Of a DNA stretch of 64,000 nt, positions 10,769-54,098 are shown piece after piece. Under the pieces are notes generated by a model, which was not told the DNA's origin, did not search any database, and worked only from the letters and a program-made list of their open reading frames with translations. This stretch comes from Octopus vulgaris. Lineage: Eukaryota. The first letter of the stretch is position 1; the number at the start of each line of letters is the position of its first letter. Position numbers and translations under genes: made by a program. The DNA lies in NCBI GenBank assembly GCA_951406725.2, contig OX597815.1, forward strand, positions 64,604,001-64,668,000, written 5' to 3'.

Positions 10769-10772
<4 letters not shown>
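10540..10772 (-). mobile_element. Short TA-flanked element with a degenerate variant HHR (same family as 60073-60271)
   Basis: Minus strand ctttctgttgaagagcgtaggctgaaaacataaaagac matches 60136-60174. Confidence 0.6.
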
Positions 10773-10813
<41 letters not shown>

Positions 10814-10833
10814 TATATATATATATATATATA

Positions 10834-13265
10834 GATAAGAAAGTTGGTTTGTGAAAGCACGTGGTTGAATATATAGAAAATAGTAAAAAGTGAAAAACTA
10901 CAGAAGGCTTAAAGGTTAAAAAATATATATATTTGCGTCAATATGTCTGAAGAATATTAAAAAAATTTTTCTTACAATGACATAGATTAGAAGAAAGACC
11001 GGTTTCGCGTTTAGCTTTTCAAATTTCGTGCGACGTAATGTTTATCTTGAACAGAGTTATCTTTATGTTTATGTTTAAAAGAGTTCTAAATAAGGGGAGG
11101 TAATGAGTGATTTCTTCCGGTGTAAGGGAGATAATCGCTTAAAATTTTTTTAACATTTTTTCCTTTCCCTTGGTGTGAATTTCTCTGTATCAGTATGTTG
11201 GCACGGTTAAGTCTGGGCTTGTACTTTTCGATGAAGAATGTTTCCTTGTTTAGTCTAATTTGTGTTGATGATCCGATAGCACATTGGTAAAATGGAAAGA
11301 TTAAAAATTGTGGTAGTAGTTGCTTTGCGCATTTCTCAATGTGCTCACTAAAAGGTATCATTCTGTATTCTGGGAATGCAATCTGTTGTCGATGCAGTGT
11401 GCATCTACGTCTGAGTGATAGTCCCGTGGATCCCACGTAGTCTTGGTGGCAGCCCGAGCATTTTATGACATAAATTATGTTTTCAGAGGCACAAGTAAAG
11501 TTAGATTTGATCTTGAATTTCTGTCCCTCTTTAAAGAGGAATTCTGATCCTTCTAGCAGGTTTGGACATGCTGCAGAAGGCAATACAGTTCTGGGCAATA
11601 GTTCTAGAGGCAATACAGTTCTGGCTGGACCAATTTCCGGAAGAAATACCAAAAAGGATCAGTAAAGAATTCATTACTAAATCAATTGAATTCATCCTAC
11701 ATAATAACCACTTAATGTTTGACAATACATTTTACCGTCAAAAATCCGGAATTGCTATGGGTACAAGGGCAGCACCAGTCATTGCGAACCTAACAATGGG
11801 CTACATGGAAATAATCATTTGCCAGGAATCTTTATCAATCTTTGGAAACCCCCTTTCTCAATACATAAAAGAGAATTGGAAACGATTCTTAGACGATTGT
11901 TTTATACTCTGGAATGAAAACACAGATAAACTGCTAAAATTTAAAAACCTATTGAACAGCATAAACCCAAATATACAGTTCACAATGGAATACAACCAAA
12001 AGGAGCTCCCGTTCTTGGATATACTAATTTAAAAAATTAACCTTAAAATAGAAACAGACATTTTTTACAAAGCCACAGACGCCAAACAATACCTTCTTTT
12101 AATTCATGCCACCCAAGACACACTAAAACAAACATCTCCTTCAACCTTGCAAGAAGGATATGCACAATAGTGTAAGAACAAAATACCAGGAACTTTAGAC
12201 TGCAAGAACTCAAAAACACCCTAATTGACAGACATTACCCAGCTCAACTCATAGAGGATGGGATCAGACGTGCAACAGAAATCAACATAGAAACTTTAAG
12301 AAAAGTTCAACACAACAACACACCTTCCCCGAAAATACTACCTTACATATCTACATACAACCCCAGAAACAAAGAAGCCTTCACCATCATCACCCAGAAT
12401 TTACCAATACTTCATGAGGACCCCAAATTAAAGGAAATTCTAAACATACACCAAATCATTAAAAGCTACAAACAACCTAAATCACTTAAAAAGATTCTCA
12501 CAAAGGCAAAATTGTTTTCTGAAATTACGGATGCAAAAGTAAAAAAATGTGGTAGATCGAACTGTGCAACATGTCCAAACCTGCTAGAAGGATCAGAATT
12601 CCTCTTTAAAGAGGGCCAGAAATTCAAGATCAAATCTAACTTTACTTGTACCTCTGAAAACATAATTTATGTCATAAAATGCTCGGGCTGCCACCAAGAC
12701 TACGTGGGATCCACAGGACTATCACTCAGACGTAGATGCACACTGCATCGACAACAGATTGCATTCCCAGAATACAGGATGATACCTTTTAGTGAGCACA
12801 TTGAGAAATGCGCAAAGCAACTACTACCACAATTTTTAATCTTTCCATTTTACCAATGTGCTATCGGATCATCAACACAAATTAGACTAAACAAGGAAAC
12901 ATTCTTCATTGAAAAGTACAAGCCCAGACTTAACCATGCCAACATACTGATACAGAGAAATTCACACCAAGGGAAAGGAAAAAAAAATTTTTAATTTTAA
13001 GCGATTATCTCCCTTACACCGGAAGAAATCACTCATTACCTCCCCTTATTTAGAACTCTTTTAAACATGAATATAAAGATAACTCTGTTCAAGATAAACA
13101 TTACGTCGCACGAAATTTGAAAAGCTAAACGCGAAACCGGTCTTTCTTCTAATCTATGTCATTGTAAGAAAAAAATTTTTTTATATTCTTTAGACATATT
13201 GACGCAAATATATATATTTTTTAACCTTTAAGCCTTCTGTAGTTTTTCACTTTTTACTATTTTCT
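10834..13265 (+). mobile_element. Penelope-like element (Neptune type), 5'-truncated, with an inverted copy of its 3' end upstream
   Basis: RT motifs QKSGIAMGT, RFLDD and LPFLD; CGRSNCATC linker; GIY-YIG NIIYVIKC..C...YVG. 10875-11575 is the reverse complement of about 12565-13265. Confidence 0.93.
11600..12994 (+). pseudogene. PLE RT plus GIY-YIG endonuclease, disrupted
   Basis: ORFs 11562-12032 and 12512-12994, with stops and frameshifts between them. Confidence 0.9.
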
Positions 13266-13283
13266 CTCTCTCTCTCTCTCTCT

Positions 13284-13314
<31 letters not shown>

Positions 13315-15073: not shown

Positions 15074-15739
15074 TTCAGTAGTTTTATTCTTATAGCGTGC
15101 TTTCACTTCACTACCGAGCGCAGCTCTGTGTGCCTTCTGGTTTTGCTGTTTCATTTGATTTGGGAATTAAGATGGTTTTTCCCCTTCGTGAGCCATTCAG
15201 GCATTGTCTCTGGCTCTGCTAGTATGCTGTTAAAGTTTTCAGCCAGCTTTTTGTGCATTCCTGTTAGATATTTCAACCAGAAGTTGGGGATCTTGTCATG
15301 CCCAGGTGCTTTCCAGTTGCTTAGTCTTTGCAGTGCCTGGGTGACCTCTTCAGTTGTTATGGGGGTCCAAAGTTGTTCAGATGCCGAGTTTGTTATTTTG
15401 ATACTCCTTTTTTTTGGCTGTTCGTTCGCCGACCATATTTCTCTCCAGAATTCTTCCAATTCTTCTGCCGTTGGTGCTGCAGTGACTTCTATTTTATTTT
15501 TTTCCAGTTCTTGGTAGAACTTTTTGGGGTTGGAGTTGAACTTTTTGTTCTGTTCAAAGAAGCGTTGGCGTTTCTCGTACCGGCGGATCCTTTGAGCTTT
15601 GGCAAGGATATCTTGCTTCAGCTTTTCTGTTATCTCCGGCAAATCTTTTTCTGTGATGTTATATTTGCGGAGCATTTTTGTTCTCTTTTTGTTGCTCAGT
15701 AGCGTTGATTGTTTTCTTTTTGTTGTTCAGTAGCGTTGA

Positions 15740-15740
<1 letters not shown>
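15074..15740 (-). mobile_element. Dong/R4-like LINE, internally deleted
   Basis: AKAQRIRRYEKR and NWKAPGHDKIPNFWLK joined directly to the 3' UTR and (TAA)n tail. Confidence 0.88.
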
Positions 15741-15827
<87 letters not shown>

Positions 15828-15831
<4 letters not shown>

Positions 15832-17497
15832 TAGTTTTATTTTTATGGCGTGCTTTCACTTCACTACTGAGCGCAGATCTGTGTGCCTTAGGTATGTGCT
15901 GTGATTTGTTGTGATGCTCTGATGGTTATTATATGGAAAGTGTTCTGCGTAGAATGTGTGCAGTGCCTAGTAGTGCAATTTTCTGTATGTTATATGTGTT
16001 TGTAAGTCCTGGTGTTTTTGTTATGTATTTGTCTGAATATTTTTTTATCATGCCTAATGCACCTACTATGATAGGAATTGTTTCTGTTTTTAGATTCCAC
16101 ATTCTGGTTGCCTCTATTTCCAGGTCTTTGTATTTTGAAAGCTTCTCCATTTCTTTTAGAGACACGTTGTCATCTGCCGGTATTGATACATCAATTAGAA
16201 AGCATTTTTTTTCTTCATGATCTCTGACAACTATATCTGGTCTGTTGGCCTTAATTTCTCTATCTGTGTGTATCGGCATATCCCAGAGTATGGTTGCTTT
16301 CTCGTTTTCTGTGACATTTTCTGGTGTGTGCCTATACCATCTTTTTTCTGTTGTTATTCCATAATGTTGGCATAGCTTCAAGTGTATGTAGGTTCCAACT
16401 CTGTCATGTCTGTGAATATATTCCTTCTTAGCCAGAGATAATATGATTTATTGTTTCTTGTCCATCTCCACATATTCTGCAGTTACTTGTTATATTTCTT
16501 TTCATTACATGTTTTTAGTAATTTCTGGTGGGAGGCTTTGGTCTTGTGCTGCAATTAAAAATCCCTCTGTCTCTGCTTAAGTCCTGAGCTTCTCAACCAT
16601 TGCTGGGATTTTTCTTTGTCTATTTCTTTTGCGTTTAGTTTAGTGCAGTATTTACCATGAAGGGGCTTTTCTTGCCATCGTTTTATCATGTTCCGTTGCT
16701 GTTCATGTTCCGTTGCTGTTCCGTTGCGGATCCTTTGTGCTTTGGCAAGGATATCTTGCTTCAGCTTTTCTTTTATCTCAGGTAAATCTTTTTCTGTGAT
16801 GTTATATTTGCGGAGTATTTTTGTTTTCTTTTTGTTGCTCAGTAGCGTTAATTGTCTACTGATTTCATTAAGAATCGACAGATCTTTTCTCATTTTTTTA
16901 TTTTGTTTTGGATGTTATTTATCCACAGGGTTTGCTTGGGTGGTGGTACTCCTGTTTGGCTGGGTTTGAGTGAGTATCCAGCTTCTTTTGTGGCTGCAGT
17001 GGATGCTGCGTATACTAAGTCATTTAGCTCAGTGATATCGCTTTTTGTTTCAGTGGCTATTAGTTCCGTGACGGCTGTTTATAATTGGTGTAATTGTTTC
17101 GTCTATTTTGATTTTTGGGAGGTATGGTCGGTGGTCCATTTTGAGCTCTGTGGTTTTCAGTTCTTTGATTATTTTACTTTTTATATTATTATAATCGTTA
17201 GGCTCCCCTTCGTTGTTTCCAGGTTTTAGATTTGTGTCGCTTTCTTTCTTATTTATATGTTTGTTTGCTGTGTTTTGGCTTGTTGTTTGTCGTATTATTA
17301 TGCATCCTTACGGTCTGGGTTTGTTGTTTTTGTTTACATCGTGTTTGTTGGGAATGCTACATTTGTCTTCGTGTTTTACTGTTTCAGTATTTATATTATT
17401 GGGCATTGTTGTGTGGCTTCTATCTACATTTTCCTGGTGTATTTTTTCTTTTAGCTGTTCTATTTCTATTTCTGATATTTTTTTTGCGTTGAGAATG

Positions 17498-24186: not shown

Positions 24187-24253
<67 letters not shown>

Positions 24254-24278
24254 ATTTATCTGTGCATATGTATGTATA

Positions 24279-24311
<33 letters not shown>

Positions 24312-24318
<7 letters not shown>

Positions 24319-27300
24319 GGTCCCGGGTTGATTCGGGGTTAACCACAGTAAGTAAGGTACTCAATACATAGCAGAGTAAAATTAATTTATTATATAGAAG
24401 GAGCTTCTACAGGACTAGTACTGTTTCATTCAAGAGAAATCTTCAGGAAGCTATTTAACAAGAATTGTATTAGCATTTATACATTTAGGCCCTTGGTGGG
24501 ATAGTAATGTTCTTCAGGGAAGTGTCGAGGTCGATTCTTGTCAGCATTTTTCTTGGTGATGGTTATAAGGGCACTAGGGTGTGCTAAGATATGTAGGTCC
24601 CGGGTTGATTCGGGGTTAACCACAGTAAGTAAGGTACTCAATACATAGCAGAGTAAAATTAATTTATTATATAGAAGGAGCTTCTACAGGACTAGTACTG
24701 TTTCATTCAAGAGAAATCTTCAGGAAGCTATTTAACAAGAATTGTATTAGCATTTATACATTTAGGCCCTTGGTGGGATAGTAATGTTCTTCAGGGAAGT
24801 GTCGAGGTCGATTCTTGTCAGCATTTTTCTTGGTGATGGTTATAAGGGCACTAGGGTGTGCTAAGATATGTAGGTCCCGGGTTGATTCGGGGTTAACCAC
24901 AGTAAGTAAGGTACTCAATACATAGCAGAGTAAAATTAATTTATTATATAGAAGGAGCTTCTACAGGACTAGTACTGTTTCATTCAAGAGAAATCTTCAG
25001 GAAGCTATTTAACAAGAATTGTATTAGCATTTATACATTTAGGCCCTTGGTGGGATAGTAATGTTCTTCAGGGAAGTGTCGAGGTCGATTCTTGTCAGCA
25101 TTTTTCTTGGTGATGGTTATAAGGGCACTAGGGTGTGCTAAGATATGTAGGTCCCGGGTTGATTCGGGGTTAACCACAGTAAGTAAGGTACTCAATACAT
25201 AGCAGAGTAAAATTAATTTATTATATAGAAGGAGCTTCTACAGGACTAGTACTGTTTCATTCAAGAGAAATCTTCAGGAAGCTATTTAACAAGAATTGTA
25301 TTAGCATTTATACATTTAGGCCCTTGGTGGGATAGTAATGTTCTTCAGGGAAGTGTCGAGGTCGATTCTTGTCAGCATTTTTCTTGGTGATGGTTATAAG
25401 GGCACTAGGGTGTGCTAAGATATGTAGGTCCCGGGTTGATTCGGGGTTAACCACAGTAAGTAAGGTACTCAATACATAGCAGAGTAAAATTAATTTATTA
25501 TATAGAAGGAGCTTCTACAGGACTAGTACTGTTTCATTCAAGAGAAATCTTCAGGAAGCTATTTAACAAGAATTGTATTAGCATTTATACATTTAGGCCC
25601 TTGGTGGGATAGTAATGTTCTTCAGGGAAGTGTCGAGGTCGATTCTTGTCAGCATTTTTCTTGGTGATGGTTATAAGGGCACTAGGGTGTGCTAAGATAT
25701 GTAGGTCCCGGGTTGATTCGGGGTTAACCACAGTAAGTAAGGTACTCAATACATAGCAGAGTAAAATTAATTTATTATATAGAAGGAGCTTCTACAGGAC
25801 TAGTACTGTTTCATTCAAGAGAAATCTTCAGGAAGCTATTTAACAAGAATTGTATTAGCATTTATACATTTAGGCCCTTGGTGGGATAGTAATGTTCTTC
25901 AGGAAGTGTCAAGGTCGATTCTTGTCAGCATTTTTCTTGGTGATGGTTATAAGGGCACTAGGGTGTGCTAAGATATGTAGGTCCCGGGTTGATTCGGGGT
26001 TAACCACATGCTATGTATTGAGTACCTTACTTACTGTGGTTAACCCCGAATCAACCCGGGACCTACATATCTTAGCACACCCTAGTGCCCTTATAACCAT
26101 CACCAAGAAAAATGCTGACAAGAATCGACCTCGACACTTCCCTGAAGAACATTACTATCCCACCAAGGGCCTAAATGTATAAATGCTAATACAATTCTTG
26201 TTAAATAGCTTCCTGAAGATTTCTCTTGAATGAAACAGTACTAGTCCTGTAGAAGCTCCTTCTATATAATAAATTAATTTTACTCTGCTATGTATTGAGT
26301 ACCTTACTTACTGTGGTTAACCCCGAATCAACCCGGGACCTACATATCTTAGCACACCCTAGTGCCCTTATAACCATCACCAAGAAAAATGCTGACAAGA
26401 ATCGACCTCGACACTTCCCTGAAGAACATTACTATCCCACCAAGGGCCTAAATGTATAAATGCTAATACAATTCTTGTTAAATAGCTTCCTGAAGATTTC
26501 TCTTGAATGAAACAGTACTAGTCCTGTAGAAGCTCCTTCTATATAATAAATTAATTTTACTCTGCTATGTATTGAGTACCTTACTTACTGTGGTTAACCC
26601 CGAATCAACCCGGGACCTACATATCTTAGCACACCCTAGTGCCCTTATAACCATCACCAAGAAAAATGCTGACAAGAATCGACCTCGACACTTCCCTGAA
26701 GAACATTACTATCCCACCAAGGGCCTAAATGTATAAATGCTAATACAATTCTTGTTAAATAGCTTCCTGAAGATTTCTCTTGAATGAAACAGTACTAGTC
26801 CTGTAGAAGCTCCTTCTATATAATAAATTAATTTTACTCTGCTATGTATTGAGTACCTTACTTACTGTGGTTAACCCCGAATCAACCCAGGACCTACATA
26901 TCTTAGCACACCCTAGTGCCCTTATAACCATCACCAAGAAAAATGCTGACAAGAATCGACCTCGACACTTCCCTGAAGAACATTACTATCCCACCAAGGG
27001 CCTAAATGTATAAATGCTAATACAATTCTTGTTAAATAGCTTCCTGAAGATTTCTCTTGAATGAAACAGTACTAGTCCTGTAGAAGCTCCTTCTATATAA
27101 TAAATTAATTTTACTCTGCTATGTATTGAGTACCTTACTTACTGTGGTTAACCCCGAATCAACCCGGGACCTACATATCTTAGCACACCCTAGTGCCCTT
27201 ATAACCATCACCAAGAAAATGCTGACAAGAATCGACCTCGACACTTCCCTGAAGAACATTACTATCCCACCAAGGGCCTAAATGTATAAATGCTAATACA

Positions 27301-28206
27301 ATTCTTGTTAAATAGCTTCCTGAAGATTTCTCTTGAATGAAACAGTACTAGTCCTGTAGAAGCTCCTTCTATATAATAAATTAATTTTACTCTGCTATGT
27401 ATTGAGTACCTTACTTACTGTGGTTAACCCCGAATCAACCCGGGACCTACATATCTTAGCACACCCTAGTGCCCTTATAACCATCACCAAGAAAAATGCT
27501 GACAAGAATCGACCTCGACACTTCCCTGAAGAACATTACTATCCCACCAAGGGCCTAAATGTATAAATGCTAATACAATTCTTGTTAAATAGCTTCCTGA
27601 AGATTTCTCTTGAATGAAACAGTACTAGTCCTGTAGAAGCTCCTTCTATATAATAAATTAATTTTACTCTGCTATGTATTGAGTACCTTACTTACTGTGG
27701 TTAACCCCGAATCAACCCGGGACCTACATATCTTAGCACACCCTAGTGCCCTTATAACCATCACCAAGAAAAATGCTGACAAGAATCGACCTCGACACTT
27801 CCCTGAAGAACATTACTATCCCACCAAGGGCCTAAATGTATAAATGCTAATACAATTCTTGTTAAATAGCTTCCTGAAGATTTCTCTTGAATGAAACAGT
27901 ACTAGTCCTGTAGAAGCTCCTTCTATATAATAAATTAATTTTACTCTGCTATGTATTGAGTACCTTACTTACTGTGGTTAACCCCGAATCAACCCGGGAC
28001 CTACATATCTTAGCACACCCTAGTGCCCTTATAACCATCACCAAGAAAAATGCTGACAAGAATCGACCTCGACACTTCCCTGAAGAACATTACTATCCCA
28101 CCAAGGGCCTAAATGTATAAATGCTAATACAATTCTTGTTAAATAGCTTCCTGAAGATTTCTCTTGAATGAAACAGTACTAGTCCTGTAGAAGCTCCTTC
28201 TATATA

Positions 28207-28212
<6 letters not shown>
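24312..28212. mobile_element. Head-to-head tandem array of a 277-bp HHR unit (non-LTR retrozyme-like)
   Basis: Left-arm unit starts 24316, 24593, 24870, 25147, 25424, 25701, 25977; inversion at 26008/26009; right-arm starts 26009, 26286 ... 27947; near-identical units; (TA)n flanks. Confidence 0.95.
26207..26257 (+). ncRNA. Type I hammerhead ribozyme (one of 14 copies: 8 on +, 6 on -)
   Basis: AGCTTC-CTGAAGA-tTTCtcttGAAt-GAAA-CAG-tactagtc-CTG-TA^GAAGCT; predicted cut after 26251. Confidence 0.88.
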
Positions 28213-28240
<28 letters not shown>

Positions 28241-28769
28241 GTATACTTATAGGTGTATATGTATACATGTTTATGTATAGCTGTATATGATGTATATGTA
28301 TATATATGGATAAACTGCATTATTATTACTATTATTTATTTATTTTCCTGTACATTCCTGGCGGTCGATAAGGGGTCAAGGATTTCATGAAGGTGCCGAT
28401 GGTCTAAAAAGTTTGGGACCCTGTTCTCGAGTATAAAACTTAATACATGCTGTTGAATAGATACATATATTGCCAGTCTACTCTGAGTTTCGCCCTTGGC
28501 TTCTCAAGTTTATCAATATGTATATTTATGATCTACAAGGAAGTTACCATTCTGAATTGTCAATAATAATCAATTCATTGATTTCTGTATGCTACTGCTA
28601 TTTTTTTTTCTTTCTACTGATCATGGGTAGAGTATATTACCAACAATCTCATTTTTTCCCGTGTTCATATATATATATATACATATATATCAACATAGCC
28701 GTAATGCTCACCTGGCATTGGAAGGTAGTGACAAATGGGTTGACATATTCCGTGTTATGCAACAAACTA

Positions 28770-37799: not shown

Positions 37800-38299
37800 G
37801 CACACATATACACATAAATATACACACACGTACAAAAACACTCACATACATAAACATGTACATACATTGGGGACACACCCATACAAGAAGGAAGAGAAAA
37901 AAACGTGCAAAAAAACATACAAACCTGCATGCAAATGTATACATGCACACGCACACATACATATATATATATGTATATATATATATACACATACGCATAC
38001 CCATATGCATACATGTACACACATATCAAATAAGAACAAACACACACATATACATTTACATATATACACACATATATACACATACATACACATGCATATA
38101 TATATATACATATATATACACACATATATATATACATACGTGTGTACTTGTACACATACAAACACATTCATGCATATATACATACATATATATAACTAAG
38201 AACACAAGTGCATAGACAGTCGCACTGGCACACATACATGCACACATCGAGAAGATAAGCATACACTAAATACCACAGAAAGAAAGGGGGGAGGTAATC

Positions 38300-39115
38300 A
38301 ATAAACCTATTTAAGGTTAAAGAAGAGGAATTTGGACATGTGCTTACAAGAAAAAATCTTTCATCTCTCGAATTTAAGACAGAACCGTTCATTTTCATAA
38401 TTATATACGACTCCTCAAGGCAAAGCGGACAATTTCTATTTCTAATCCTATAAGAGGGGGTAGAGGAAACAACATTCCAGGAAATTGAGAAATTTATGTT
38501 ATCTCTTTTAAGTTGCCATACCTTTTTGGATAAACTAGTACTATTTTCTTTCCGACGATCATTAAAAGATGATTTATGATTATTCAAACGTAATTTAATA
38601 GAACCTAGAGATATCATGTGTAGTAATATAATGGAACCTAGAGAGATCATATCTAGTAATAGTGGCTTTATATACAACATTTTTCATTTTACAATTACCT
38701 TTAACTTCACAAGTGTTAGGATTTCTACAGCTACAATTCTTACTAATATCAGACGCACTGTTGCTATGTGTATATGTATTGGTAGAGATAGAGTTTGCGT
38801 TGGTATGGGGATCGTTGGTAGAGGGTATAGGGCTATTTGAGTAGAAGGGGTTAGTATTAGTAGTAGGTTTAGTTTTCAATTGTTAAAGGAAGAAATAATC
38901 CTAAATAAGTTCGGAGAAACAGAAAAGCCAAATCTTATCATTCTGTTATTGAATATCTCAGCATACCTAGATTTACTAAAATTAGATTTAATAATAGAAC
39001 GAATAGACTTTATAAAGTCAGACTTCAAATATTTAGCAAATGGGAATATAATCGAAATTATGTTATTATTGTGTTTCTTGTTGGTAGGTGGTTTTTATTA
39101 TACGGGTCACCCATT
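38300..39115 (-). pseudogene. PLE-type GIY-YIG endonuclease (Naiad-like Cys-rich form); no RT seen
   Basis: IFN..MIRFGFS..PN linker, CSCRNPNTCEVKGNCKMKNVVYKA, RLNNHKSSF...TSLSKKVWQLK, CPLCLEE, LNSRDE. Confidence 0.8.
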
Positions 39116-40801: not shown

Positions 40802-42520
40802 AGATCTTTATTATTGAATCCTTAAAATTTATACTTCAGAACAATTATTTCCTATTTGATGACACATACTATCGTCAGTAATGTGGAATTGCGATGGGAA
40901 CGAAAGGAGCTCCTGTTCTTGCGAACCTAATAATGTGTTATTTTGAATTCACCTCATATGAAGTATCACTTCAGAAATATGGTTACCCATTTTACCTCTA
41001 CATAAGAGAAAATTGGAAGTGATACCTGGATGACTGCTTTATCATCTGGAAGGAGAACATCGACAAACTTTTGGATTTCAAAACAACACTAAATAACATA
41101 AATAGTAACATTCAATTCACAATGGAATATAACAAAGAACAACTACCATTTTTAGACATCATGATAAAAAAAAGTTAACAATGAAATCATAACTGATATT
41201 TATTATAAACCAACTGATTCAAAACAATATCTTCTTTTTAACTCATGCCACCCGAAACACATAAAAATAAACATCCCTTTTAACTTAGCAAAAAGGATCT
41301 GCACAATAGTGTCTGATAGAACAACTCGGGACCTTCGTCTTCAAGACATCAAAACAACACTTATTGAAAGACAATATCCACCCTCTCTTATCGACGTGGG
41401 AATTAAACGTGCCAAACAATTAGACACAAAAACACTAAGAACAAAAAACATAGCACCACACCTCAAACCAAAACATTACTTTTTATATCAACACACAACC
41501 CCAGAAACAGTGAGGCATTCAACACTATTGTGCAAACTCTCCTTTTACTAACTAGTGATCCAAAAATGAACGACATCCTGAAAACACACAAACTCATCAA
41601 ATGCAAAAAACAAGACAAATCGCTAAAGAGACTACTAACAAATGCGAAGCTTTACAAAACAACCACGAAACCAACGGTTCAAAAATGTGGACGCCCAAAT
41701 TGTGGAACCTGCCCCAACCTGCTTGAAGGCTCGGATTTCCTTTTCAAACAAGGACAGAGGTTCAAAATTAAAACTAGTTTCACCTGTGCCTCTGAGAACC
41801 TAATCTATGTAATAACCTGCTCGGGTTGCGGTCATCAGTACATTGGACAAACGAGTATGACCTTGAGAAAGAGAATCACTCTACATATGGAGCAAATCCG
41901 CTTCCCGCAATACAGACAAATTTCTCTCAGTGAACACATAGAAAAATGTGCAGGTAACATCAAACCAAATTTCACAGTCTTCCCTTTCTACCAGTGCAAA
42001 GACGCAATCTCTCAACTAGAACGTTTAAATAAAGAAACTGTTTTCATTGAAAAATACAAAACACGTCTTAGTATGCACGCATAACCAACTTTTATATTTT
42101 TACATATTCCATTCATGATTACATCACTGTACATAAATCCCCTACTAAACAAGGTTTTTAAAACCTGTCTCTGTTCTGTACACATATTTAATCCCCACCC
42201 ATTACCGAAAGCTGAACTGGTATCTCCCTTACACACAACAATAACAATAATAACAACCAATTACCTCCCTTTATTTATCTACTTGGGAAGTCATTCACTC
42301 GTGAATTTCATCACACACAACATGGACCAAATTTCTTCTTAAGAAAAAATATATATTCAAATAAATAAAACATAATATCATGAATAACGATAGCGAAACC
42401 GGTCGATATATTAAAAATTATATTAAAACTGTGTATGTGTGCGTATTTTCCTATTTTAATTTCTTACATACATTACAACTCACCACGTGGGGATAATCGA
42501 AATTTCTCTTTTCTGTTACT
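40797..42520 (+). mobile_element. Penelope-like element (Neptune type), 5'-truncated
   Basis: GIAMGT, YLDDCF and LPFLD RT motifs; CGRPNCGTC plus NLIYVITC..C..QYIG (41530-42084); (TA)n flanks. Confidence 0.92.
42375..42409 (+). ncRNA. Minimal HHR in the PLE 3' UTR, A3-U8 variant
   Basis: ATATC-ATGAATA-acgatagc-GAAA-CCGG-TC^GATAT. Confidence 0.65.
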
Positions 42521-44039: not shown

Positions 44040-47000
44040 TAAATGCACGAAATCTCAATGTGACATACGCAAGACGTTGAAACCAGCACCAGGAACCCTG
44101 GAGAAACACACCAGACACACCGATTACACATCAAGTACGTAAACTGAATAATTACTTATGTATGCAACTGTCTGTACATCCATGTGCACATGCTGATATT
44201 TACAAGCAACATATATAACACCTACACGACACACACGTACATACAGAAAATAAAAGAAAAACACGTGTCACGAGCGATGCCGAACAAAACAAAAACAACC
44301 GAATATAAAAAGGAGCAAATTAGTCACTCAGTTTAAAACATCACTAAACAGTCATGCTCGGAATCATGACAGCGGTGTCATGTCAAAAAGTCAACCCTGA
44401 CTCTCCTATTGTCACCGTCGATGCTTTAATGACAAGCCAAAATTCATGCTGAATCTGTCATCACCCTGGACAAGGACCGCGTTACCCAGTGGAGAACCAG
44501 ACTGGGTTCGAAAAGTCAGCTGCTGGAACAAACTCTTTAAAAAAATCAACTACCAGGTGACCAGAACCAGGCTAACCCTAGACCTGTAGTAACACCACCA
44601 AAGACACCACCTGAAACAAAATGCAGGAAATGGACAGGAGAGGATTACAGGGATGTGCTGAAAGCTCTCTATACAGCCCAACAAAAGTCAAACAATAATT
44701 TCATTGTACAAACGTACACGTCATGGAGAAACTTAGTAGGCAACAAAGTATGCAGATATATAGACGCAAATAAATTAAGTAATGTACGTAAAGACATCAT
44801 TAAGAACAAAAGGTTAACTAACGCTGAAATTAACCAAATTAGGACACAATTATCTCATGGTAGACCAAAGAAAACAGCAACAATGCAGATGAAATAGGCA
44901 ACGGATGCACAGAACACAGTGTACGAACAGTACATCCCAACGAGGAAGCTGAAGAAAGAATAGCGATGAAAAGATATGCGGAAAAAGAGGAGGAAGTAGA
45001 CCTACCTCAAGAACACCAGAATAGATATGACAGAATTTGAGGTGAATAATAAAGAGATCATGTATTATTTGTCGATGAACTTGCTTAGAGGAGTAAATGT
45101 TAAGACGAAACAAGCTAGAAAAATCAAACGAATATATAAAATCAAAGATTTTATAAACCTCCCTGCAATGAAGGACAACAGTGAAACAACGAATACAACT
45201 AAAAACTCAACAGTTCAGAAAATATGACAAAAGAAGGTATTCAAGACGGAAGCAAAAACATTTTATAGGAAAAATGGCAAAAGTAAGATAGAAGCAAAGG
45301 AGCCACCTAAGACTGAGGAAATGCAAGAGTTCTGAAAGAAGATATGGAGCAACAAAAAAGAACATAATGCTGAAGCTCACTTGAGAGAACGTGAGAAAGT
45401 GAGGCAGGATGAAGTTGAGCAGAAATATGAGGCAATGAGAGTAGAAGAGCTAAGATATGTTCTTAGAAAGTCTCACAAATGGAAAACTCCAGGACTGGAC
45501 CGGGTTCCTAACTTCTGGCTGAATTGTTTGACAGAAGTACACCAACATTTTGCTACATCCTTGACTGATGTCATCCAGAACCCAGAATAAATACCTGCCT
45601 GACTGATCGAAACAACAACATACCTTCTACCAAAAACTGGAGATATGAAAAATTCAAAGAACTACCAACAAATAACATGTCTCAACACCACCTACAAGAT
45701 TATCACATCGATACTAATAGAAAGAATATACACTTTCCTTGAACAGGATTCTATCCTTCCGCAAGGTCAAAAAGGTTGTAAAAGGAATTCTTATGGATGC
45801 AAAGACCAATTACTTTTAAATAAAATGATTGTAGAGAATTGCCGGAGCAAAAAGAAGAACCTGGATGTGGCATGGATAGACTACAGGAAAGCGTTTGATC
45901 ATGTCCTATACAAGGCCCTTTTCTTTTTTCTTTTTTGTGTGTTCTCTGTTTTATTCTGGCTTATATATCTTGCATTAGATGAGGTAAGTCCTTTATTTTC
46001 ATGTTTGATCATGTCCTACACAAGGCCCTTGAGATATATAAGATTTCTCTTGTCATCTCCAAATTCTTATAAGGTAGCATGGCCAAGTGGAATACACATT
46101 TCCCTCTACACTATATTAATGGGAAGAGCCAATCTAGCAATATCAACATCGAACGAGGCATCTTTCAAGGTGACTACCTCTCCCCATTACTCTTTTGCAT
46201 GGCACTGATACCACCCTGAGTAACACCAGCAATGAGCTCAAAATGTATAATATTATAGTAAATCGTGTTTTATATGGACGATCTGAAGCTGTTTGCTAAA
46301 AATGACGAAAAGCTACTAGTTGTTCTTTGTTCTTTGTTCTTAACAGCATTTACCCGGGGTGGGTTGAGCTGGCTTCATTCATCCTCAATACTGCATCTCT
46401 CACAAACGCCGACCAGACCTGGCGATTTGAGGCTAACGACCGCGTCATTTCCAACAATTCTTTATTCCAGCGGCGAACGCCGTAGACATGGTTGGGTTCC
46501 AGATCAGCCTTGATTGCCATCAGCCAAGTTTTCCGGTGTCCACCACATCGCTTTCGCCAACCCTGAAGGGGAGCTGGGGCAATTGCTTCGTAGATGAATT
46601 CTCCTGGTTGACGACGGAGAGCATGACCCAGCCAACGCTGGATGACTTGTCGGAGGGAGGTGATTCTGCACTGGTGTTGCACCGAATTGTTGGAGATAAA
46701 CGAAGGATGCGGCGTAGACAGAGGTGATCGAAGGATTCTAGTCGCTTAATATCTTCCACCCTCATTGGCCATGACTCGCTGCCGTAAAGGAGAATCGTTC
46801 GCACTAGTGCTTGGTAGATCCGTACTTTGGTGGTGTGTCGGATCTCAGATCTTGACCAGAGTCGTGCACTGAGTCGGTTGAAGGCTTGGCGAGCGAGGTC
46901 GATTCGTGTTTTAATGTCAGCCTCACCTTGACCTGTAGCTGTAATGATGGCGCCAAGGTATTTGAAACTCTCAACCTGATCAAGAATATCACCATTGAGG

Positions 47001-50000
47001 ACAATGGGTGTTTTGTCTGGTGGGGAAGATTCGGCTGTGAGGATTTTGGTCTTCGAGGCATTGACTTTCATACCAATCTGCGATACAACACGCTGGAGCT
47101 CATTGATAGCAAACTGGACGTCAGCAAATGTTTCGCCAAGTATCGCTATGTCATCTGCGTAGTCTAGATCCTTGACGGAAAAGTTGTGACCAACAGTGAT
47201 ACCGGGGAACTCCCTTAATGCATTTGTGGTGATCCAGTCGATGGCGTAATTGAAAAGAGTTGGCGAAAGAACACATCCTTGCCGAACGCCAGACCGTATT
47301 TCGAAGGGTTCCGACACTTCGCCATACACGCGTACGCGGGGTCTTGCTGAGCGGTAATAAGTTTTGATAATATTGAGAAGTTTAGGTGGGATACCATCTG
47401 CCTGCATGACCTTCCAGAGGGTGTCACGATCGACGGAGTCGAATGCAGCAGCAAAATCAACAAAGCAGATGACTGTCTTTTGCTGAAAGCACCAACGGTG
47501 TTCAAGGATTCGTGTTAGGGTGAAGATTTTATCGGTGCAGCCTCGATTTCGACGGAAACCACACTGGTTTGGTCTTGTTCTAGAGTCACGTTCTGATTGG
47601 AATCGTCTCAGAAGAATAGATGCAAATATTTTGGCAGAAACGTCAATCAGACTGATGCCACGGTAGTTGCTGCAGCAGCGTTTATCGCCTTTCTTAAAGA
47701 AAGGTACCAGTGCTGCGTCGCTCCAGTCTTGGGAGAGGGTTTCCGTATCCCAAACCCGGGTCATAACTTGATGAATCGCGGGCCCAAGTATATTTGCACT
47801 ATGCTTGAAGATCTCAGCAGGAATGTTATCTTCGCCGGCAGCTTTGTTATTTTTGAGCTTTCTGATAACAACAAGGACCTCTTCAAGCGTAGGGGGAGCT
47901 GTTTGGAAGTTATACAAGGTTGGGGTCGCGTCGATCGCAGGAGCAGATAAGGGGGGCTGATGGTCATGGTTCAGCAGATTGGCGAAATGGTCTCTCCAGC
48001 GGATGATGCGCTCAGTGAGATTGGTGATGTGATCGCCATTCTGGTCCAAAATAGTTTCGTTACCACTCCAGCCTGTCTTTCTGCTCGATCGAAGGAGGCT
48101 GTAGAGTCCCCATTAGATGCGGCGCATTCCATGTCTTCAGCCACCGTCCTCCAGAATTTATTTCGATCAGCGCGGGCAGAACGGGCAGCTTCACGGCGCA
48201 GTTGTCTGAAGGTATCGGATTGGTTGCATCGAGCTTGTTTCGCTTTTTCAGCAATTTCGATTCTTCGGCCTGAGATCCAATCTTTGTCTTTTCGCTTAGT
48301 AGTGCCGAGTGTTGTGGACATCACGGATTGAAGATTGTGTTTGACCGTTTGCCAGACTTCATCTGAGTAAGCAGATTGAGGGACTTCGAGCCCGTTAAAC
48401 CGATTTGTTAATTCAATACGGAATAAATGTTCGGTCTGGTTACTTTTTAGCTTCGAGATATCGTATCTTAAAGGCTTAGAGCAAGACTTGACGGCCTTGA
48501 GATGAAGACGTAGTTTTGCCCGTCTTAATACATGATCGGAACCATGTTCGCTGCCGGTTTCTGCGCCTCTGAACATTCGACAATCAAGGACGTTCTACGA
48601 TCAGCAGCTTCTAACGAGAAAATGGTCAATCTGGTTTGCTGCGACACCGTCATTGGAGTACCATGTAAGAAGATGTCGCCGTGGATGTTGAAAGCGCGTG
48701 CTAGAAACAGTAAGATGATTTGCAACAGCGAAATTGTCAAGTCTTTCACCATCGGCGCATTGATTGCCAATCGCAAACCGTCCCAGTATGTGGTCGTTAG
48801 TGGTGTTACTTGGTCCTCTGCGGGCATTCCAATCGCCTGCAACGATTAGAATGTCACTTGCGGGTATGCGACCAACAACTGCCTGTAAAGCATCATAGAA
48901 GGAGTCCTTATCTTCATCAGAAGCGGTGAGAGTGGGAGCGTAGACAACAACGGCACTGATGTTGATAGCTGAACATCTGAGGCGGATACGGGCTAGATGG
49001 GGGGGAGATAGGTTCCCAGGCAAGGAATGACGCATTGGCGCGATCGCTGAGAGCGAAGGCAACTCCATGAAGGCCAGAGTTATCAGTTGGTCCACTGTGG
49101 TAGAGATGGTATGATGCGTCGTGTTGGGGTACTTTGATTCTGCGATAACCAGAATCAGGAAGTCTAACTTCAGAGAGGCATGCAATATCGATATTATATT
49201 TGGAGAGAGAGTGCATCGTTAGTGCCTTTGTTTCTTCATGCATCAGGGATCTGACGTTCCAAAAGCCAAAGAAATGCGTTCTTCCATGTCGCATTAGCAT
49301 CCAAGTTCGCTAATTTAACACTCGCCTCACTGGGACAGCTAGCGCGTCGGCTCCCGCGGACGCCGTAGTAGCGTTTGTCATTGAAGAAGGTGCGATATGC
49401 ATGAGGAATATTTGAAGGATCTTGGGAATAGGAGGTTTGCTAGCGGTCTCCAGCCGCAAGTATATCCCTGTTGGGAGAACGTCTTGTTTGCCGTAGATTT
49501 TCCACAGACGCAGGGACAGGACGCGTTGAAGCCGCCGGTTGCCGGATCAGACGCTTCTGTTCACCAGAGCCCCGTTAACCGGGTGCGGCCCCGATACCGC
49601 TGGGTGTCAGAACAATCCGCCTTGGGTGACCCTACCAGAAACCGAAGTCTCCGATGGCATAGCTCTGACACTCCCGTTTCACCCCCTTACCACGATGAGG
49701 TGATACATAATTACACATTTATTGGATGGCCGTTGACTCTCAAGAGTTCCTCCTCCCTTTGACGGGTTTTGTTTTTCATCTCGCAGGGTGTCCAATAAAC
49801 ACCCTCCTCACCAGGCAATCTTGGTGGGGTTGCCGGTTTAGTCGCCGACGGCCCGACCATGCAACAGGTTGTACTGGGTTACATGTTACCAGTAGCACTC
49901 GAAGGGCTGTTAACAACTGTTAAAGAGCACAGCAACGATATCGGGATGGATTTTGGCCTTGATAAGTGTGCTAAAGCAACTTTTGTAAGAGCAAGCTCAA

Positions 50001-52384: not shown

Positions 52385-52389
<5 letters not shown>

Positions 52390-54090
52390 AATCAAGGAAC
52401 GGCCATAATAGGCCATTCACCCACTAGAAATAACAGCCAAAGCTTCAACCGCAAAATAACATTAATTCCGCAAACCAGGAGAAAATTAAAAAACATTTAC
52501 CCTGTAATTTCTTATACGATGCACCGTTTCATCTACTGTTTAATGGTAAACTAACCTGATTAAAATAAATCAAGCCAATCTTCCTTAGATTCGTCAGTAA
52601 GAAATAGCCAGATCGGAACAGATATTTTCACGAGGCATTTCTGTCCCTGCCTCGGCAATATCTGACCTAAAATTTTCAAATCATCGCACTCGCGCCAAAT
52701 TTGGCGCGAGTGCGATGATTTGAAAATTTTAGGTCAGATATTGCCGAGGCAGGGACAGAAATGCCCTCGTGAAAATATCTGTTCCGATCTGGCTATTTCT
52801 GACGAATCTAAGAGGCCTATGGAAGATTGGCTTGATTTATTTTAATCAGGTTAGTTTACCATTAAACAGTAGATGAAACGGTGCATCGTATAAGAAATTA
52901 CAGGGTAAATGTTTTTAATTTTCTTCTGGTTTGCGGAATTAATGTTATTTTGCGGTTAGCTTTGGCTGTTATTTCTAGTGGGTGAATGGCCTATTATGGC
53001 CGTTCCTGATTGTGATGTTGAACGTATAAATGGTCTATGACTATTTAATTTTTTTCCCACTAGGCCGCTGGTGGCAAAAAAATTCTACAAAATCTTTTTG
53101 CCACCCTATATTGATTAATTATGAATTTTCTGGTTGATTCCGTAATGGAATCGGCGGCTTATATTTATTTGCTGCCGATAAATTTGGCGCGAGTGCGATG
53201 ATTTGAAAATTTTAGGTCAGATATTGCCGAGGCAGGGACAGAAATGCCTCGTGAAAATATCTGTTCCGATCTGGCTATTTCTTACTGACGAATCTAAGGG
53301 CCTATGGAAGATTGGCTTGATTTATTTTAATCAGGTTAGTTTACCATTAAACAGTAGATGAAACGGTGCATCGTATAAGAAATTACAGGGTAAATGTTTT
53401 TTAATTTTCTCCTGGTTTGCGGAATTAATGTTATTTTGCGGTTGAAGCTTTGGCTGTTATTTCTAGTGGGTGAATGGCCTATTATGGCCGTTCCTTGATT
53501 GTGATGTTGAACGTATAAATGATCTATGACTATTTAAGTTTTTCCCACTAGGCAGCTGGTGGCAAAAAAATTCTACAAAATCTTTTTGCCACCCTATATT
53601 GATTAATTATGAATTTTCTGGTTGATTCCGTAATGGAATCGGCGGCTTATATTTATTTGCTGCCGATAAATTTGGCGCGAGTGCGATGATTTGAAAATTT
53701 TAGGTCAGATATTGCCGAGGCAGGGACAGAAATGCCTCGTGAAAATATCTGTTCCGATCTGGCTATTTCTTACTGACGAATCTAAGGGCCTATGGAAGAT
53801 TGGCTTGATTTATTTTAATCAGGTTAGTTTACCATTAAACAGTAGATGAAACGGTGCATCGTATAAGAAATTACAGGGTAAATGTTTTTTAATTTTCTCC
53901 TGGTTTGCGGAATTAATGTTATTTTGCGGTTGAAACTTTGGCTGTTATTTCTAGTGGGTGAATGGCCTATTATGGCCGTTCCTTGATTGTGATGTTGAAC
54001 GTATAAATGGTCTATGACTATTTAATTTTTTCCCACTAGGCCGCTGGTGGCAAAAAAATTCTACAAAATCTTTTTGCCACCCTATATTGA

Positions 54091-54098
<8 letters not shown>
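52385..54098 (+). mobile_element. 488-bp HHR tandem array with a 315-bp 5' inverted arm
   Basis: Palindrome centre 52699/52700; unit starts 52697, 53180, 53668; (TA)n flanks. Confidence 0.93.
53277..53383 (+). ncRNA. Type I HHR with extended stem II (intact copy also at 53765-53871)
   Basis: ATTTCTTA-CTGACGA-ATCTA[58 nt]TAGAT-GAAA-CGGTGCATCG-TA^TAAGAAAT; 8-bp stem I. Confidence 0.88.

Follow-up and report, generated by a model that had tools for sequence, protein, structure and literature searches.

The window analysed here, a 64,000-nt stretch of the Octopus vulgaris genome (assembly GCA_951406725.2, contig OX597815.1, positions 64,604,001 to 64,668,000 of the forward strand), contains at its positions 24312-28212 a head-to-head array of 14 type I hammerhead ribozyme units set in a (TA)n tract. 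We consider it probable that this array is a nascent retrozyme lacking long terminal repeats (a non-LTR retrozyme), made in one insertion event by an active Penelope-like element (PLE) of the Hydra type. The locus offers a matched pair, namely a PLE with an intact frame of 718 codons, which we call the parent, and a repeat unit of 277 nt identical to the ends of that element. Positions in the parent are counted as +1 and -1 from its hammerhead cut, and all genome-wide counts were taken in the host genome, which is microsatellite-rich and comprises 2.8 Gb in 227 contigs.

The array and its 277-nt unit

Tandem Repeats Finder (TRF) reports a period of 277 with 99% matches, with 6.1 copies in the stretch 24312-26008 followed by 8.0 in 26009-28212, and a count of hammerhead cores gives 14, eight on the plus strand (cut sites from 26251 to 28189) and six on the minus strand. 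Both results confirm an earlier note on this DNA, which had described a 277-bp unit present about 6.1 times on one strand and about eight times on the other, with few differences, in a (TA)n tract. Ten of the 12 cut-to-cut monomers are identical, the whole array holds four differences, and the arms agree in 1694 of 1698 alignment columns, which bears out the further claim of a hairpin potential of more than 1.6 kb, the double-stranded RNA being a potential of the sequence only. All four variants are singletons, none is mirrored across the axis, and two sit in the innermost left unit. While the unit number of six plus eight is that of the assembly, the array itself is real.

The left arm (24312-26008), whose ribozymes read on the minus strand, extends from an outer end at parent position +96 (the long end) to an inner end at +61, and the right arm (26009-28212, plus strand) from an inner end at +35 to an outer end at +23 (the short end). 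The two are joined bluntly at 26008/26009, next to an unpaired 26-nt spacer at the array's centre (26009-26034, plus strand). The outer ends share 2-4 nt of AT microhomology with the target, of which TRF and the sequence delimit a left tract at 24192-24311 and a right tract at 28213-28307; the flanks on the two sides are different unique sequence, and the (TA)n setting leaves any target-site duplication unreadable. The earlier statement that the array ends about 20 nt past the last cut thus applies to its right end, at +23, and fails for its left end, at +96.

One cut-to-cut monomer (26252-26528, plus strand), our predicted circle, consists of parent +1 to +194 followed by -83 to -1. The resulting deletion junction, +194/-83 (26168/26169, plus strand), has no microhomology, and its pattern occurs 14 times in the genome, all 14 inside this array. 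On copy number, a point raised in the earlier note, the ribozyme of the parent family has 2033 exact copies genome-wide, and the junction is confined to a single locus. Downstream on the plus strand lie a TATAAA box at -74 (26178-26183), a putative promoter with a start near -45; the first plus-strand hammerhead (26207-26257, with its core at 26213 and a predicted cut after A26251); and the beginning of the parent's reverse transcriptase (RT)/GIY-YIG open reading frame (ORF), from its ATG through codon 19, equivalent to +138 to +194 (26389-26445). The features of the parent that the unit thus retains are the TATA box and the hammerhead, the ORF start, and the two points at which insertions end. 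No ORF of at least 120 amino acids was found in the array, and the parent's ATG frame meets a stop after 19 codons; the unit is non-coding, as had been said, yet every copy of it keeps these codons.

The hammerhead has a 6-bp stem I, a core of CUGAAGA and GAAA, a GUA triplet, and a stem III of 4 bp, whose 8-nt loop contains an ACUAGU palindrome. A type I descriptor matches the unit and none of 3000 dinucleotide shuffles. Stem II is weak, with just three Watson-Crick pairs above a basal U.U (a pair also known at the base of helix II in axolotl HHR_Amex2, according to the available text of PMC7229834), and the extension of stem I beyond the bulge is AU-only and absent from the minimum-free-energy (MFE) fold. 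Of the complete type I ribozyme that had been described, the core, stem I, GUA triplet and loop III palindrome stand as stated, with the weak stem II and the stem I extension as qualifications. The Hammerhead_1-type search proposed as a check came out negative, as Rfam returned no match at the gathering score in the whole window and no hammerhead at E<=10 in 26100-26700 (601 nt), where only three chance matches appeared. The predicted energies are -7.8 kcal/mol for the local hammerhead fold, against -9.0 kcal/mol for the MFE fold, and -30.4 kcal/mol for a dimer formed through the loop III palindrome; the predicted 277-nt circle has a z of -2.6 (60 shuffles). Because +140 to +150 can pair with -60 to -50, the ribozyme would be blocked in this circle, and such a predicted block of stem I could mean either a stable circle or poor cleavage. 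A second motif, CTTCC(C)TGAAGA, at about +160 to +174 of every unit (window 26135-26148), resembles the 5' half of the ribozyme.

The parent element and its paired ends

When one monomer was used to search the genome, with 40 of the 68 candidates scored, many dispersed copies came back; they match only part of it and are the ends of a retrotransposon measuring 5193 nt from cut to cut. The unit is letter-identical to seven of the 17 parent 5' regions examined, and this identity makes the array very young. The earlier view of a young, retrozyme-like insertion connected with PLEs is thereby upheld and given a parent, whose ORF-start pattern has 33 exact copies. The product of the 718-codon frame (P0001, from parent copy L038) is modelled with a predicted local distance difference test score of 92, and its eight best PDB structure matches are telomerase TERTs. 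Pfam gave no RT or GIY-YIG match on P0001, PDB searches with it by sequence and by profile gave no meaningful match, and pairwise BLASTP against the window's other PLE-like frames was weak (E 0.19 and 0.011). P0001 has 1086 homologues at E<=1e-10, among which GIY-YIG was found on two of the 120 listed (P0002 and P0038), and its atlas neighbours carry GIY-YIG and RVT_1. By eye we recognise an RW-basic motif (RWR for RWK), DKT, a CxCx5C linker, and CxxC and CxH in the endonuclease, which we compared with the clade description in the main text of PMC8557442; the consensus of 80 homologues reads RWK and DKT. With its hammerhead in the pseudo-LTR and its insertion into (TA)n, as in the Hydra clade, the parent appears from sequence and model to be an active Hydra-type PLE with a single ORF, encoding a telomerase-like RT followed by a C-terminal GIY-YIG endonuclease. 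In every full copy the 3' region (parent +2300 to +5100, in L042) is a mixed (TA)/(TG) microsatellite of about 2.9 kb, so that repeat annotation may overlook the family.

The ends of parent insertions follow a strict rule. For this analysis, we took the first 100 listed ribozyme copies on contig C1, selected 40 surrounding stretches, mainly minus-then-plus pairs within 10 kb, and pooled them with the loci from the monomer search; ends into (TA)n were then counted in 56 loci (L083, which overlaps L042, was omitted). All 41 head-to-head parent insertions combine one short end (+17 to +27) with one long end (+91/+96), in long-short order in 22 cases and short-long in 19 (binomial p 4.5e-13 versus independent choice), and the same pairing holds in three of three arrays. 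Likewise, in a second, unrelated hammerhead family with a 488-nt unit, all 15 inverted loci pair an end at +130 with one at +235, six of the 21 loci examined not being inverted. Fixed short and long ends, together with variants that are not mirrored, point to priming from both target strands, and we think the inversion is best read as two-strand priming with one site per strand. The fold-back that the earlier note had added to its explanation is at odds with these same facts.

Template, insertion and competing explanations

Two sister arrays have the same design. The one on C8 (L031, G000:C8:91475104-91483647) has a 271-nt unit with the junction +183/-90, and the one on C5 (L033, G000:C5:37481421-37489267) a 333-nt unit with +201/-133; all 31 matches to the former junction and all 24 to the latter lie at the respective locus. 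In each of the three arrays, which are head-to-head, the junction is found in the left and in the right arm, and one outer end lies at +96, the other at +22/+23. No fourth multi-unit array was present among the 100 listed of 102 exact matches to +110 to +135, a search by which diverged arrays may be missed. Splicing was ruled out as the source of the junctions, as none of the three has GT..AG. The right (TA)n tract of the C8 array also contains another, small palindromic insertion.

Seven parent copies, 92-100% identical to the parent, contain a jump in one arm only, from about -45 to somewhere between +200 and +878; one of them (L115) jumps twice, to different places, the others once, and extra letters are frequent at the joins. 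In five of the seven, a non-parent G stands just 5' of -45/-44, the position at which stem I begins. This G resembles a copied cap and, given the TATA box at -74, leads us to infer a capped transcription start near -45. Expansion occurred in all three arrays, whose units extend upstream of the TATA box, and in none of the seven one-jump copies (Fisher p 0.008). All mini-units retain at least +183, which suggests that the region through +183 may be bound by the protein, in parallel with PAc (Poseidon, Anolis), for which the ORF start is needed in the RNA in vitro (PMC11167929). Other short forms exist as well. Eleven of 33 pairs on C1 are palindromes of about 200 bp, resembling miniature inverted-repeat transposable elements, in which both parent arms stop near -45 and are often linked to each other by the AGCT of stem I (L052, L058, L059, L061, L062, L064, L065, L074, L078, L080, L085), and an older 1.3-unit copy (L050:4681-4994, +200/-44) has a ribozyme that differs just at permissive places (CUGAUGA, loop changes, a stem I wobble).

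As both arms carry the junction and all 14 copies of it are identical, it must already have been in the template, which was most likely, as the simplest option on this sequence evidence, a small 277-nt circular RNA. Circular templates have been proposed for PLEs and retrozymes in the available texts of PMC4209133 and PMC7229834, and dimer cleavage and circle models are reviewed in that of PMC6765202.

The proposal starts from a piece whose composition, parent +1 to +194 fused to -83 to -1, is a fact of the sequence, and which would have existed as a 277-nt circular RNA. Such a circle could have been released by two hammerheads from a TATA-bearing 1.x-unit DNA precursor that is absent from the haploid assembly, or could have arisen when an uncapped fragment of a parent RNA, itself read-through or circular, was closed directly or ligated. 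The PLE protein would cut both strands of the (TA)n tract, and each 3' end would prime reverse transcription on the same template, at +23 and +96; the pattern of ends is observed, and the two-strand mechanism is our interpretation of it. The telomerase-like RT (to our knowledge, no RNase H domain is expected in a PLE RT) would then circle the template about eight and about six times, and the two cDNAs would be joined bluntly into the head-to-head palindrome. The rolling-circle reverse transcription of a 277-nt circle put forward in the earlier note is retained as our preferred reading. The array is so far without a daughter copy, and each of its units could remake the circle.

Several observations weigh against this proposal. 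The 277-nt RNA, whether monomer or circle, is deduced from DNA sequence, no RNA run being listed among the public sequencing runs, and exact junction patterns revealed no donor locus for any of the three junctions genome-wide. Rfam models give the ribozyme no score, and the predicted pairing probability of its stem I is about zero in the whole unit, circular or linear. In Xenopus, one of nine dimers cleaved in vitro (10.64898/2026.07.22.740005), and uncut RNA is the main substrate of PAc (PMC11167929). Variant blocks are repeated in the sister arrays, at spacings of 8 and 10 units in C8 and once 7 units apart in C5, and these call for multimeric templates or later DNA duplication, unlike a single monomer circle. 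The TATA contrast, lastly, compares three loci with seven, which are small numbers.

The variant blocks would fit a multimeric template, and the same twin-primed insertion can be imagined with a linear RNA, either the multimeric transcript of a donor array absent from the assembly or a 277-nt RNA on which the RT jumped repeatedly from end to end. Jumps from an RNA 5' end to an internal 3' end do occur in the seven parent copies, the RT fold is nearest to telomerase with its repeat addition, and the jumping version requires no precursor. We nevertheless regard a linear template as unlikely, since the observed jumps are single (twice in L115), confined to one arm and often accompanied by extra letters, in contrast to 14 identical blunt junctions, and since a linear multimer of at least eight units must escape its own ribozymes. 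Insertion of one or two inverted units per arm, followed by growth of the DNA through unequal crossover or slippage, seems to us improbable, even if local amplification is a published model (10.64898/2026.07.22.740005) and the block duplications in C8 and C5 resemble minisatellite turnover. Both arms of all three arrays must then have grown independently, with the junction still required in the template, and the array is very young and its four variants are singletons, whereas the seven one-jump copies, some of them about 92-95% identical and older, stayed at 1.x units.

An origin of the inversion in fold-back or self-priming would suit a near-perfect palindrome with a 26-nt loop, as well as the short near-perfect palindromes among the C1 pairs, and the available text of PMC3846280 ascribes head-to-head PLE copies to antisense self-priming. 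Nothing, however, would make a fold-back copy halt at the second fixed end, as all 41 parent and all 15 488-nt pairs do, and a fold-back leaves unmirrored variants and freely differing arm lengths unexplained, so that we judge it very unlikely. Finally, the palindrome might be an artefact of sequencing or assembly (a fold-back read), or its unit number wrong. Contigs of four other public runs, out of 24 listed, bridge neither 26008/26009 nor 26168/26169, a gap that is no evidence of absence, and the units beside the centre are error-rich in C8 and C5, as in hairpins that are hard to read, with two of the four variants of the present array innermost on the left. The distinct, unique flanks, the family-specific ends and the unmirrored variants all speak against a fold-back read, the same contigs show the parent's own continuations as well as +96 and +23 ends into (TA)n, and the same geometry recurs at many loci in three element families; we therefore find an artefact barely credible. 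The array locus may be private to a few individuals.

If the array is indeed a nascent retrozyme made by twin-primed PLE insertion, further consequences follow. Should every unit self-cleave, a transcript would be cut into 277-nt pieces, with one polarity per arm. Reverse transcription is predicted to start at +23 and +96, one per strand, and to yield multimers from a circle, and a minimal cis-element of about -45 to +183/+200 is suggested for a telomerase-related RT that targets (TA)n. A broader reading, which we advance tentatively and with some doubt, holds that two-site twin priming on one RNA is obligate for PLE insertion, that the hammerhead serves to make circular templates, and that small circles cut out of the parent RNA undergo rolling-circle reverse transcription, so that an active PLE gives rise to new retrozymes de novo, again and again, each in one step. 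If this were true, the genome would contain the complete series, from one-jump dead ends lacking a promoter, through three newborn arrays that each arose once, to a mature family of 488-nt units with the same insertion signature.

Neighbouring elements and known systems

The 488-nt family is represented in the window by a second head-to-head hammerhead array in (TA)n (52385-54098), with a type I ribozyme that has a long stem II, and ends at +130/+235. The family has 689 exact ribozyme copies, and its arrays, 96-99% identical and spread over many contigs, reach at least 14 units; locus-specific variants are common to the two arms of a locus, with 3.2 substitutions between units of one locus versus 7.6 between loci, and the predicted 488-nt circle has a z of -4.9. 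The family has no similarity to the parent unit, and no autonomous partner was found among the first 100 of the 689 places. Another head-to-head insertion in (TA)n, at 10771-13314, is PLE-like (a weak RVT_1 match and a GIY-YIG-like frame), with arms 97-98% complementary and a tail of about 40 nt at the left end only. Older PLE remnants lie at 38168-38683 (minus; a Hydra-like endonuclease piece with 34% identity to P0001, E 8e-12) and 41168-42084 (plus; a GIY-YIG piece, Pfam E 1.8e-6). The remaining elements are a long interspersed nuclear element (LINE) with apurinic/apyrimidinic endonuclease and RT in pieces (46350-49309, minus; RVT_1 E 2e-35), an RT fragment (45603-46208, plus), a LINE-like remnant with no Pfam match (15151-16447, minus) and a mariner-like transposase piece (1966-2415, plus).

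The array is known from its sequence, and it is by sequence features that we compare it with retrozymes: eight plus six consecutive ribozymes, a 277-nt unit, a type I core and no coding capacity. Animal non-LTR retrozymes, as far as described in the available texts of PMC7229834 and 10.64898/2026.07.22.740005, are similarly tandem repeats in this size range with a type I hammerhead per unit and no ORF, and are likewise tied to PLE terminal repeats. Unlike them, the array is not, in this assembly, a dispersed family mobilised in trans, as its junction is confined to a single locus without daughters, and it has 100% identity to an active parent, an exact fusion point, and a head-to-head palindrome with the PLE end signature; the word "inverted" does not occur in the available text of PMC7229834. 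The PLE origin of retrozymes has been argued from co-occurrence and phylogeny, with arrays attributed to local amplification (10.64898/2026.07.22.740005).

As for the Hydra clade, the parent shares its motif set, hammerhead and (TA)n targeting as described in the available text of PMC8557442, but has RWR where the clade has RWK and measures 5.2 kb where published members are mostly below 3 kb, owing to its 2.9-kb microsatellite-rich 3' region; the array is a non-autonomous mini-unit. According to the same text, PLEs generally have an inverted 5' copy, with a tail often at one end only. The closest biochemical parallel is PAc, which in vitro cuts and extends both DNA strands at an AT-rich target, from two RT start sites downstream of the ribozyme that set the tail (PMC11167929). 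The start sites of PAc are non-homologous to the target and showed no strand preference (PMC11167929), whereas those of the octopus parent lie 73 nt apart, with 2-4 nt of AT microhomology, and each is used once per inverted insertion.

Twin priming itself has its model in another group of elements, and we found no report in the open-access literature of its application to PLEs. In L1 twin priming, an internal start on the RNA is made from the second target strand, so that a head-to-head inversion results and both 3' ends point outward; the second site varies and the arms copy different parts of the RNA. In the PLE array, by contrast, the two sites are fixed and one sequence is copied by both arms. 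Already published are one-sided tails, the two start sites of the RT and the derivation of retrozymes from PLEs. What mobilises retrozymes, what purpose the PLE hammerhead serves, and how the inverted copies and tails of PLEs originate are treated as open in the papers cited here, and in the open-access literature we found no earlier report of a strict end-pairing rule or of a nucleotide-exact retrozyme birth. To this the present locus adds an exact match between parent and offspring, apparently repeated and independent births, and the strict pairing of two ends, which is indicative of twin priming.

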